Virus record (IMG/VR): IMGVR_UViG_3300045988_159288
Source: a virus
Lineage: Duplodnaviria > Heunggongvirae > Uroviricota > Caudoviricetes
DNA: 56,670 nt
Reading direction: 5' to 3' (one strand)
Shown: positions 36,812 through 38,357 of the stretch, one piece after another
Position numbering within the stretch: position 1 is the first letter of the stretch
How the letters are laid out: the number at the start of each line of letters is the position of its first letter
The notes under the pieces: model-generated
Seen by the model: only the letters and a program-made list of their open reading frames with translations
What the model was told of the DNA's origin: nothing
The model's database searches: none
Position numbers and translations under genes: made by a program

Positions 36812-37274
36812 AGGGTTTTCGTCATGGTTAGCGACTTTGCGGCGGTTTAGAAACTGACCATTAAAGTAAATGCAAACGATGATCTGATGATGGTAGCGGC
36901 CTAAGAAGCCAGACGCCACGGGGTATGAGTCGTCCCCCGTCAAAAAATCGACCGCAGAGTGTCCCCGTCTGTGTATTAGGGAACGGGGAGGCACAACAGG
37001 TAAGGGCGCTGGTGTGATTAACCAGATGAACGAGAAGGGGCCATCTGTTGGTCAGCGTCCTTTCCTGTTGCGTCTTCTTTTCAGCGTAACAGCGGTGCTT
37101 AACAGCACTTTGGGTACAGTTCCACGAATTTACGGGTATATCCCGTCATGCTGAAAGCGCTAATCACGCTGGAAGCCAGGGTTATGCATCCCCTGTTACC
37201 GAATTGCAGCCAGGGCGCGGTGCGCCGAAAAGCATACGGAGGTGGAAGCCCTCGCCGGAGACGTACCCGGCAAG

Positions 37275-37350
37275 TGATGGTGTAGCTCAGCGGTTAGAGC
37301 GGTTGACTGTTAATCAACGGGTCGATGGTTCAAATCCATCCACCATCGCC
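37275..37350 (+). tRNA. tRNA-Asn (anticodon GTT)
   Basis: Cloverleaf folds by hand: acceptor GATGGTG/CACCATC, anticodon loop CTGTTAA, T-loop GGTTCAAATCC, discriminator G, encoded CCA. Confidence 0.85.
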
Positions 37351-37352
37351 AA

Positions 37353-37428
37353 TGCCGGTTTAGCTCAGTTGGTAGAGCGCCTGCCTTGTAAGCAGGATGT
37401 CAGCGGTTCGAGTCCGTTAATCGGCACC
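37353..37428 (+). tRNA. tRNA-Thr (anticodon TGT)
   Basis: Acceptor GCCGGTT/AATCGGC (one G-U pair), anticodon loop CTTGTAA, T-loop GGTTCGAGTCC, encoded CCA; 2 nt after tRNA-Asn. Confidence 0.85.
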
Positions 37429-38357
37429 AGCACAACAGGTAAGGGTATTTTGCGACGTCGGAGATCGCCGAGCTTGGCAGAGGGTTCGAATCCCTACGAA
37501 GTACCCTTACCGTTGTGATGAATGCGCAGGCTGATGCGCGAAAGACATTGCAGCTATTGCGGAAAAGAGCTGTTCGGCGGGGCAATTAAACGCCCGTGAG
37601 AGTCTGAAATAACCGCAAGCCGGAGATCAGCACCGGTCATCACAACACAACAGGTAAGGGCATTCTCCCTTATGGGGCTTGGCTTAAATGCATCGAGTGC
37701 TCTTACCGTTGTGATGAAGTGCAGCTCTTTGAAGCAACCAGAAGATAAGCATCTGGCTTCACAACATAAACCGCAGGAACGACCAATAAACGGTAGTCCG
37801 TATGGAGAACACCCCGTTGAGGAAGAGGCCTGGCCGGAACCGTAACCGGCACTACAACGTTGAGAACACTGGCGTAACGGGGTCATATCCCAATCTACGA
37901 ATAAATGTTGCGTTGCAGCGTGACAACCAGTGTTCTCAACATTGTGGTGAATGCACAGGCTGATGTGCCGCAACTACAGTAGTGCGCGCTTTGCGGGGCT
38001 TGCTACAACCCTGTGTCGGAGTTCAGCACCGACCATCACAGTTTGATTCTCTGGCATGAGCATAACGCTGAAATAAGTCCAGCCTGGTGCGGCCCGATCA
38101 CCCGCCGTTAGCTCCACGAAACGGAGCACGTAACAGGTAAGAGCATTCTCCTGTAACGGGTTCATATCCCAATCTACAGGTCCACCAAGAATGCTCTTTC
38201 CGTTGCGGTGAATGCGGCTAAGCGCACGCGGGGAAATGGTTATATCAGTCCATTCATTTCTCCTTGTTTCCCCGTCCACGGTGGATAACCAGCCAAAGGA
38301 CACCGGGAGGCACCCGGCACCGCAGCTTTTTTATTCGTTAAATAATGGAGTGAGAGG

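Follow-up and report, generated by a model that had tools for sequence, protein, structure and literature searches.

What does a phage that resembles P1 carry around its tRNA genes, ahead of the gene ban, where the records of its relatives annotate hypothetical proteins and where the DNA itself holds a series of repeated, tRNA-like hairpins? The question was raised by a preliminary description of the viral DNA IMGVR_UViG_3300045988_159288 (Caudoviricetes; the whole stretch of 56,670 bases is hereafter called the window), and we addressed it by folding, covariance models and comparison with related phages. The hairpins form five units on the plus strand, two of which end in what appears to be a copy of one arm of the initiator tRNA. 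Taken together, the results make it very likely that they represent a functional, strand-specific family of RNA structures with tRNA-arm tips.

Five Hairpin Units Share One Fold on the Plus Strand

The existence of five related units was borne out far beyond chance by repeat counts, folds and a covariance model. The 5' arm AACAGGTAAGRG is present in four copies in the window (0.34 expected), and the motif GGGNTCATAWCCC of units 3 and 4 in two (0.01 expected). The sequence GTTGYGRTGAAKGC, with up to one mismatch, occurs three times (0.18 expected), and a fourth copy at 37708 carries a 1-nt insertion. Folded one by one, as had been proposed in the preliminary description, the units gave stable stems with z-scores of -4.1 to -5.8 against dinucleotide shuffles, and when the whole 1351-nt stretch was folded at once, all five returned as separate local hairpins. 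Once G-U pairs and one bulge are counted, the stems are 20-25 bp long in all units, instead of the 10-14-bp inverted repeats first noted, and each of them closes a branched tip. Their 5' sides are purine-rich and their 3' sides pyrimidine-rich, with G-U pairs, and their ends have the form CACAAC...GUUGUG. In five of five units the predicted stem is long enough for an RNase III substrate, defined here as RNA that is double-stranded almost without interruption for about two turns (20 bp or more).

Unit 0 (36990..37074; -48.4 kcal/mol, z -5.4; minus strand -33.6) has the lower stem CACAACAGGUAAGGGCGCUG / CAGCGUCCUUUCCUGUUG and a tip that is not tRNA-like. It lies upstream of both tRNA-Asn and tRNA-Thr, and the original placement of the array downstream of these two tRNAs is thus right for units 1-4 only. 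Unit 1 (37429..37519; -42.7 kcal/mol, z -4.2; minus strand -36.4) combines a long stem with a three-way junction, the 3' branch of which (GAGGGUUCGAAUCCCUA, 37480-37496) mimics a T-arm. Unit 2 (37644..37715; -43.9 kcal/mol, z -5.1; minus strand -33.7) is a hairpin with a tip (CUCCCUUAUGGGG + GGCUUAAAUGC) unlike tRNA. Unit 3 (37850..37949; -49.2 kcal/mol, z -5.8; minus strand -45.5) has a 23-bp stem, a branch A with the tip GGGGUCAUAUCCC (37879-37891) flanked by AC / AAUC, and a branch B with GUUGCGUUGCAGCGUGAC. In unit 4 (38127..38210; -38.0 kcal/mol, z -4.1; minus strand -35.1) the tip of branch A is the anticodon-arm mimic GGGUUCAUAUCCC (38158-38170).

A covariance model, R1, was built from the units of the anticodon-arm type and run unfiltered over all 56,670 bases. 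On the plus strand, its matches up to an E value of about 0.003 were the five units only: 22.7 bits for unit 0 (E 1.5e-4), 18.8 for unit 1 (E 0.003), 21.5 for unit 2, 59.6 for unit 3 and 61.8 for unit 4 (E 3.5e-17). Their reverse strands scored lower, and the next site elsewhere had an E value of 0.058. Under this model, the three units without the motif carry the same lower-stem consensus, and the window has no other copy. Moreover, the plus-strand fold was more stable than the minus-strand fold in every unit, by 2.9-14.8 kcal/mol, because the stems contain G-U pairs. Where R1 scores were set side by side, the plus strand reached 60-103 bits and the reverse 27-39 bits.

Tips Resemble Single tRNA Arms

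As the preliminary description had stated, none of the units is a canonical cloverleaf; ARAGORN and the Rfam tRNA model called only the three genuine tRNAs of this region. The likeness to tRNA lies in the tips. Those of units 3 and 4 follow the pattern GGG-NUCAUAU-CCC (GGG-GUCAUAU-CCC in unit 3 and GGG-UUCAUAU-CCC in unit 4), with three consecutive G-C pairs, a 7-nt loop, U33, the anticodon CAU and A37, as in an anticodon arm. They cannot be T-arms, because their position 58 is U and the T-loop rule demands A58; of the three T-arm-like hairpins that had been listed, only that of unit 1 therefore stands. Judged by sequence, the tips of units 3 and 4 are mimics of the anticodon arm of initiator tRNA-fMet. 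A run of three G-C pairs is what classically sets initiator tRNA apart. In lambdoid phages the tips read CG(A)CGGGCUCAUAACCC, and CGGGCUCAUAACCC is identical to the 14-nt anticodon stem-loop of E. coli initiator tRNA-fMet. An E. coli tRNA-Met gene with a median of 4 copies per genome contains CGUCGGGCUCAUAACCC, in the context GCUCGUCGGGCUCAUAACCCGAAG; this copy number is the one expected for the initiator genes metZ, metW, metV and metY. The branch A helix below the conserved AC / AAUC loop covaries.

The features of a T-arm (a stem of 4-6 bp, the pair G53-C61 and a loop UUCRANY, that is U54, U55, C56 and A58) were found in unit 1 (37480-37496, GAGGG-UUCGAAU-CCCUA) and in units of two relatives, L008 (CAGAG-UUCGACU-CUCUG) and L017 (GUAGAG-UUCGACU-CUCUAC), both of which share the scaffold AACAGGUAAGRGC with unit 1. 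One loop type, UUCGAMU, is presented here on three different, covarying stems. The T-arm forms the 3' branch of unit 1, but in the units of L008 and L017 it is the 5' branch; the anticodon-arm tip is the 5' branch in its own units. One scaffold bears at least six different tips, and the anticodon-arm tip was found on at least five scaffolds. The tip of unit 2 is unchanged in its homologue in a Klebsiella phage, where pairs of the stem have changed from A-U to G-C and from U-G to C-G.

Some further observations concern the mimic itself. Its motif of 21 nt, GACGGGCUCAUAACCCAAUCC, is also found in hairpins with wholly different scaffolds (L011 104-187, L048 10419-10495 and L312 about 3036), one of which belongs to a Raoultella genome. 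R1 gave 35-37 bits for the L011 and L048 hairpins, and all three may be further families presenting the same mimic. Upstream of unit 3, a 15-nt stretch (GGAGAACACCCCGUU, 37804-37818) is 80% complementary to the 5' side of the mimic (37876-37890), and pairing between the two, if it forms as predicted, would unfold the mimic of this unit. The same stretch recurs in D6 and in the P1-like contig L017, which may reflect sequence identity only. Pairing in cis of the mimic loop with a downstream ribosome-binding site or start codon was also considered and rejected: the best duplex energies (250 nt, 69 contexts) were no better than those of shuffled sequences.

Compensatory Changes and Exchange of Cassettes

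The 59 forward-strand hits of R1 (55 of them distinct) were aligned to the model. Standard pairs filled 91.5% of the cells, compared with 78.1% when the 3' partners were shuffled and 39-52% when the partners were slid by 1-3 columns. In 22 of the 35 pairs (218 cells) changes were present on both sides, a result reached by none of 500 shuffles. Of the 22 pairs with such compensatory changes, 13 belong to the long stem (which has 21 pairs), 6 to branch A (7 pairs) and 3 to branch B (4 pairs). As a control for bias, hairpins were collected again by the string of the stem tail alone, which gave 120 pattern matches, about 118 of them hairpins. The exact tip motif was present in 79 of the 120; most of the others were one substitution away or carried the variant GG-CUCAUAA-CC, and a few were more diverged. 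The P1-like phages differ by few substitutions, mostly C-to-U changes that keep G-U pairs, on the plus strand only, together with one compensatory change from C-G to U-A in unit 0 and one A-to-G change that mends a mismatch. The compensatory changes in helices that are not those of tRNA, and the conservation in both P1-like and lambdoid phages, indicate selection.

The array also varies by larger steps. P1 is without 37530-37695, P7 and Ro157c2YLVW are without roughly 37450-37640, and SJ46 is without 37899-38152, which leaves a hybrid of units 3 and 4. Extra tRNAs (Tyr, Ser-UGA and Arg-UCU) are present in D6, CMS-2020a and others. All variant junctions lie within sequence that is repeated between units and overlap by up to 29 nt, and the units act as substrates for homologous recombination that reshuffles the cassettes. 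The tRNA sets of P1-like phages vary from contig to contig (L008 2246-3069, L017, L079, L026 and L113): tRNA-Tyr(GTA) may stand between Asn and Thr, and tRNA-Arg(TCT) may replace Asn. An 87-nt gene resembling tRNA-Ser(TGA) in P1-like arrays is better described by the Rfam model of tRNA-Sec, with 43.1 bits, which is below the gathering score.

Distribution in P1-like and Lambdoid Phages

A scan of viral contigs with the tip motif of units 3 and 4 gave at least 120 loci, with 89 distinct sequences among the matches listed. Most of these 89 were hairpins of lambdoid phages, in which one tip is carried by quite different stems (ACAAAACAGAGAAGAGC, ACGCAACACACRAGAGC, GCACAACAGAAAAGGGC and CACAUUCGCCUGAGC). 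In mEp460 the hairpin belongs to the leader of about 600 nt that separates the first early-left gene from the repressor gene, and an intrinsic terminator directly precedes the hairpin. The units point the same way as the early-left operon in mEp460, the ban operon in P1 and a Q-dependent late operon in the Klebsiella phage, where the homologue of unit 2 and a tRNA-Thr stand between Q and the lysis genes. The lambdoid hairpin was found in 62 phage records, including SfV, SfII and SfIV of Shigella, ST64B of Salmonella, cdtI and Stx2c phages, and in 2,492 of 5,426 complete E. coli genomes (46%), where the annotation is "none" or "hypothetical protein" and never an RNA.

In species-representative genomes, the real copies among the at least 120 loci listed were almost confined to Enterobacterales, with hairpins in Escherichia, Citrobacter, Enterobacter, Kosakonia, Mixta, Yersinia, Trabulsiella, Raoultella and Buttiauxella. 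One hairpin was on a contig labelled Chryseobacterium. The other matches outside Enterobacterales, among those listed, were almost all due to chance, and many were apparently in coding sequence. The units thus form part of an unannotated family common to P1-like and lambdoid phages of Enterobacterales. A cmscan search with Rfam 15 at E values up to 10, which included the array, its relatives, the mEp460 leader and ten further loci, found no family that covers the units, the sole hits on them being noise of microRNA models on the long stems. Searches for the motif strings, for initiator-tRNA mimics and for tRNA-like decoys in phages returned nothing relevant from the literature covered, which omits most subscription journals. 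The initiator-tRNA mimicry of units 3 and 4, the extent of the family among lambdoid phages and the nature of the sequences taken for unit tails had all been missed in the preliminary description.

The Array Region Is Non-coding

The records of P1 and RCS47 annotate two minus-strand genes, plp and upl, over units 1-4, and it could be argued that the region codes for the Plp and Upl proteins and that the repeats are coding repeats. Open reading frames (ORFs) of 139 and 109 amino acids are indeed present in the window on the minus strand (37554-37973 and 37974-38303), and the upl-like ORF matches the PHROG families 7444 and 14500; the plp-like ORF matches none, and Pfam has no match for either. 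However, the variable sites among P1-like sequences fall on the three codon positions as 12/14/16 in the plp-like and 4/14/15 in the upl-like frame, with nonsynonymous changes exceeding synonymous ones. This lack of a third-position bias is unlike the three control genes, dmt (15/15/62), ban (9/2/41) and the gene of an SPFH protein (2/0/9). Other P1-like records annotate different ORFs or none at this place, and indel variants cut through both frames. Hence the probability that the repeats are coding repeats is close to nil. The array region is non-coding and is read from the plus strand, the earlier remark that it holds no convincing ORF stands in spite of the annotation, and plp and upl are probably annotation artefacts. 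As a practical consequence, they could be dropped from the annotation of the P1 family, and the RNA family could be added to Rfam.

Order of the Array and STnc100-like Modules

From 5' to 3', the array consists of unit 0, a spacer, tRNA-Asn, tRNA-Thr, unit 1, a module, unit 2, a mini-module with a spacer, unit 3, a module with a spacer, unit 4 and an STnc100-like module. Units start 1-2 nt past a tRNA CCA or after a module resembling a small RNA (sRNA), and they end where the next STnc100-core-like module begins; in relatives the hairpin directly follows tRNA-Thr or tRNA-Ser. What the preliminary description called a "conserved tail" is the 5' end of the element that comes next, a structured module that GUGRUGA / UCAYCAC closes.

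Module 1 (37512..37646, plus strand) is closed by GUUGUGAUGA / UCAUCACAAC, is bounded by the perfect 10-bp inverted repeat I11, has the tail of unit 1 as its 5' end and shares the core architecture of STnc100. Its 135 nt are 96-98.6% identical to sequences of the lambdoid phages mEp460, IME207, 1720a-02 and Stx2c phages, with unrelated flanks, and this identity suggests a recent exchange of the cassette between P1-like and lambdoid phages. The mini-module (37708..37766, plus strand) is a short relative of module 1, with GUUGUGAUGAAG ... CCAGAAGAUAAGCAUCUGG CUUCACAAC, the direct-repeat families D1 and D2 and the inverted repeat I12. Module 3 (37941..38041, plus strand; GUGGUGAAUGCACAGGCUGAUGUGC ... 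GUCGGAGUUCAGCACCGACCAUCAC) is STnc100-core-like, contains the repeat families D1 and D2 and is similar to module 1 and to mEp460. The last module (38204..38324, plus strand) is closed by UGCGGUG / CACCGCA and followed by a U-run. It matches the Rfam family RF02076 with 37.8 bits (E 6e-6; gathering score 47) over model positions 31-147 only, and an equal match is present in P1, D6 and Ro157c2YLVW. The genuine STnc100 of phage 933W, which lies downstream of stx2B, reaches 207.7 bits over positions 1-206. On the model scores, the last module is similar to the core domain of STnc100 only and not a member of the full 206-nt family. STnc100 and PasD are prophage sRNAs encoded near Q and stx (bioRxiv 10.64898/2026.05.13.724894). 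The modules share with this family the core, with 5' UGGUGAAU and a hairpin and 3' CCGGGAGGCACCCGG CACCA. Unlike STnc100, the P1 modules are below threshold and are without model positions 1-30 and 148-206, and the hairpin units lie outside the STnc100 model.

In mEp460, a second hairpin unit with a different tip (CAACGAUGAGGGCAUU ... AAGUGCUCUCAGCGUUG; L003 2936-3008) stands directly before an STnc100-like module; thus the lambdoid leader is also an array of hairpins and modules.

Operon and Transcription Context

The region of the window is 98-99% identical to phages of the P1 family (vB_EcoM-813R1, RCS47 and P1 itself), and the window is a P1-like phage. In the record of P1, dmt ends at the bivalent C1 operator Oban (Op72) with the promoters P1ban and P2ban, followed by a "dicF-like region", tRNA-Asn, tRNA-Thr, a third tRNA (Ile2, anticodon CAT) and ban. 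The order in the window is the same, with dmt at 34582-36600, the three tRNAs, and ban from 39786. The two tRNAs inside the array are genuine: tRNA-Asn (GTT) at 37276..37351 (plus strand; ARAGORN; Rfam tRNA 74.5 bits) and tRNA-Thr (TGT) at 37354..37429 (plus strand; ARAGORN; Rfam 72.9 bits), which has an encoded CCA, with unit 1 beginning 1-2 nt past it. ARAGORN placed the third, a Met/Ile2 tRNA, at 39430-39505.

The five units lie between ban and its C1-controlled promoter, an annotation of the P1 and P7 records, and they share their strand with ban and all three tRNAs. Sigma-70-like promoters were predicted nowhere in 36500-39800 (3.5 expected), and none is internal to the array. One strong intrinsic terminator (36784-36812), an 8-bp G+C-rich stem followed by U7, separates the ban promoter from the array. 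The claim that the units lie inside an operator-controlled transcript is right as regards the promoter, but the intervening terminator means that a single transcript of this kind would need read-through.

Several neighbouring features were recorded as well. The "dicF-like region" of P1 (window 36715-36812) ends in this terminator, and everything downstream lies beyond it; the Rfam DicF model has no match to 36715-36812 at E values up to 10. Over 190 nt, the leader between tRNA-Ile2 and ban (window 39502-39691) matches the beginning of the mEp460 PL leader (L003 2747-2929) at 78% identity, and this unannotated segment common to the ban leader and the early-left (PL) leader is probably structured. 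Between the array and the third tRNA, window 38358-39402 encodes two proteins, a membrane protein of 78 aa and an SPFH/Band 7 lipoprotein of 275 aa (Pfam E 1e-30), the place of which is occupied in P1 and P7 by tciA, tciB and tciC (TerB-like).

Proposed Function and Alternative Explanations

The explanation that we prefer is that the units are RNA cassettes with tRNA-arm mimics, processed by RNase III and engaging host factors by their tips; for this reading as a whole we would put the probability at about 0.5. The array would be transcribed from the ban promoter by reading through the terminator at 36784-36812. The product would be a precursor like beads on a string, in which the units alternate with tRNAs and sRNA-like modules and the tips on the three-way junctions are exchangeable. 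Host RNase III would cut the long stems in the way known from T7, the lambda N leader and metY-nusA-infB, so that the tRNAs and modules are separated and the tips released or exposed. The tRNA-arm mimics would then occupy the host factor that normally reads that arm of tRNA. For the anticodon-arm mimic, the most concrete candidate is a nuclease of the VapC type with a PIN domain; alternative partners may be MetRS or, together with IF3, the P site of the 30S subunit, and for the T-arm either TruB or TrmA. Among the options raised in the preliminary description, processed small RNAs and decoys for tRNA-targeting nucleases are the candidate readings that we favor.

A number of points weigh against this explanation. 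Transcription, RNase III cleavage and the binding partner are all steps that we infer, and the strong terminator lies upstream of the array. A structure favored on one strand might in principle be one of single-stranded DNA instead. The mimic is only partial, since in all copies of the anticodon-arm mimic an AC/AAUC internal loop replaces the two outer pairs of the anticodon stem; the P1 copies also depart from tRNA-fMet at loop positions 32 (G or U) and 38 (U). Units 0 and 2, as well as several tips in relatives, resemble no tRNA arm. Single tips are dispensable, because unit 4 of Ro157c2YLVW (L004 3064-3134) has lost exactly the 13-nt mimic (CCUGUAAC|AAUCUACAGG), and the unit 3/unit 4 hybrid of SJ46 (L007 2554-2635) arose by recombination within the mimic motif. 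Finally, the alignment was fitted to the model and most of its sequences were gathered by the tip motif, and for this reason nothing can be read from the fact that the three G-C pairs are invariant.

The leading speculation on function concerns the nucleases. VapC homologues of S. flexneri and S. enterica cut tRNA-fMet between anticodon stem and loop, in a manner specific for sequence and structure (PMC8522696). The Shigella phages SfV, SfII and SfIV and the Salmonella phage ST64B, phages of the hosts from which these VapC proteins come, carry the hairpin. Copies of tRNA arms, chiefly of the anticodon stem-loop of tRNA-fMet, presented on RNase III-processed stems and co-expressed with early genes, might thus soak up tRNA-targeting toxins of the host or its plasmids, that is PIN nucleases of the VapC/MvpT type that halt translation initiation. 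We consider a decoy role of this kind a long shot. If it were true, an RNA-based counter-defense would be hidden in about half of the E. coli genomes.

Other explanations account for part of the same evidence. If the units were purely hairpins for processing or insulation, acting as RNase III sites or as barriers to 3' exonucleases that keep tRNAs, sRNA-like modules and the mRNA downstream apart and stable, in the manner of phage T7 early mRNA, the lambda N leader and metY-nusA-infB, with tips that have no function of their own, then stems of 20-25 bp and a lower-stem consensus shared by all units are what one would see. The same holds for the position of the units, whose 5' ends follow a tRNA CCA by 1-2 nt or an sRNA terminator directly and whose 3' ends reach to the following module or ribosome-binding site, and for tips that are variable and at times deleted. 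This idea deserves attention but is on balance improbable, for it does not explain why a tip of 19-21 nt identical to the anticodon arm of tRNA-fMet is kept on at least five unrelated scaffolds with a covarying helix beneath it, why the UUCGAMU loop is kept on three T-stems, or why the tip of unit 2 is fixed while its stem changes. Elements acting in cis on transcription, such as put-like antiterminators of HK022 that allow the preceding terminators to be read, are very unlikely. It is true that the units occur in promoter-proximal leaders with intrinsic terminators in P1 and lambdoid phages alike, that the extended stem of lambdoid phages pairs the U-tract of the terminator with a downstream GGAGAAA, and that the mEp460 PL leader and the P1 ban leader have further homologous segments. 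Nevertheless, the units are downstream and not upstream of the terminators, they stand in tandem between tRNAs, one Klebsiella unit is in a Q-dependent late operon, and the HK022 immunity region is matched by neither the motif nor R1. An identity with the put RNA itself was rejected, since HK022 has no match to the motif or R1 and the architecture of put differs (PMC9378689).

Decayed tRNA duplicates, one of the possibilities offered at the outset, or functionless recombination scars would agree with the real tRNAs in the array, with its variable tRNA content (Tyr, Ser-UGA, Arg-UCU), with the T-arm of unit 1, which stands beside an acceptor-like strand in the order of a tRNA, and with the deletions and hybrids made by recombination between units. 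We hold such an origin to be scarcely credible: each unit has at most one tRNA arm, the units gave no tRNA hit (ARAGORN; Rfam tRNA model at E values up to 10), and the T-arm of L008 and L017 is the 5' branch, which is the wrong order for a tRNA. Furthermore, the helices around these arms are not those of tRNA, they covary and are conserved in P1-like as well as lambdoid phages, and the arm can be on one side of the junction or the other. Even less can be said for DNA elements, either miniature inverted-repeat transposable elements, which had also been proposed, or sites resembling integron attC or tRNA att that would reshuffle the tRNA and sRNA cassettes. The units form imperfect palindromes, with ...AAC / GTT... 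at their ends, after each "cassette", the content of the cassettes differs between phages, and tyrosine integrases use anticodon and T-loop sequences of tRNA genes as cores. Yet both ends, ACACAAC / GTTGTGA, depart from the attC consensus RYYYAAC / GTTRRRY at two positions each, and the variants break at points in either arm of the stem (5' or 3') as well as inside the tip. Their overlaps reach 29 nt, as in homologous and not site-specific recombination. The remaining 55 kb of the window hold no dispersed copies, the plus strand is strongly favored, and only the anticodon arm is copied instead of the 3' half of a tRNA gene. As to integron attC sites in particular, consensus and breakpoints both disagree with such an identity, and no search for an integron integrase gene was made.

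Should the proposed function of the RNA cassettes be true, the stretch now assigned to two hypothetical proteins of P1 would be a modular array of non-coding RNAs, and a prophage element so common that 46% of complete E. coli genomes have it would be a partial mimic of the initiator tRNA. The family would provide a testable candidate for the way in which temperate phages handle initiator-tRNA nucleases. It would also help to explain the variable tRNA islands of phages, because cassettes bounded by hairpins could recombine freely between P1-like and lambdoid phages.

Comparison with Known Systems

The few bacterial tRNA mimics include the thrS operator, tmRNA and YrlA, beside which the units would, if their function is as proposed, form a new class. 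The E. coli thrS operator, a mimic of the tRNA-Thr anticodon arm in an mRNA leader, is similar in that a copy of the anticodon stem-loop of a single tRNA is placed in a leader upstream of a ribosome-binding site, and the lambdoid hairpin lies about 40 nt before the first early-left gene. Unlike in the thrS operator, the tRNA copied here is tRNA-fMet, the stem has 20-25 bp, tandem arrays with tRNAs are formed and no synthetase gene adjoins; MetRS would be a candidate binder. YrlA RNAs have a long stem formed by their 5' and 3' ends and a tRNA mimic domain bearing a T-arm, and they occur in phages too. The long stem formed by the ends and the partial tRNA mimic including a T-arm are therefore common to the units and to these bacterial Y RNA-like RNAs (RF02553). 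In contrast, RF02553 hits no unit and gives only a weak match of 25.6 bits (gathering score 69) on the real tRNAs (37296-37413), and the anticodon-arm tips have no counterpart in YrlA. We know of no Ro/Rsr gene in P1.

The RNase III hairpins of T7 (R1.1 and others), of the lambda N leader and of metY-nusA-infB are likewise long intercistronic stems between stable RNAs or cistrons, and in metY-nusA-infB the RNase III hairpin follows a tRNA-fMet gene and a terminator. They differ from the present units in having no conserved tRNA-arm tips, and cleavage of the present units is predicted from this analogy. Phages also answer anticodon nucleases with whole tRNAs; those of T5 replace tRNAs cut by PARIS or PtuAB. 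The variable tRNA array (Tyr, Ser, Arg, Asn, Thr, Ile2) resembles such systems, and the conceptual target, host enzymes that attack tRNA, is the same. Unlike whole tRNAs, the units cannot be aminoacylated and cannot decode, and only competition for binding would be possible for them. The finding thus joins two groups that include these systems, the non-coding RNAs that mimic tRNA and the intercistronic processing hairpins of phages.

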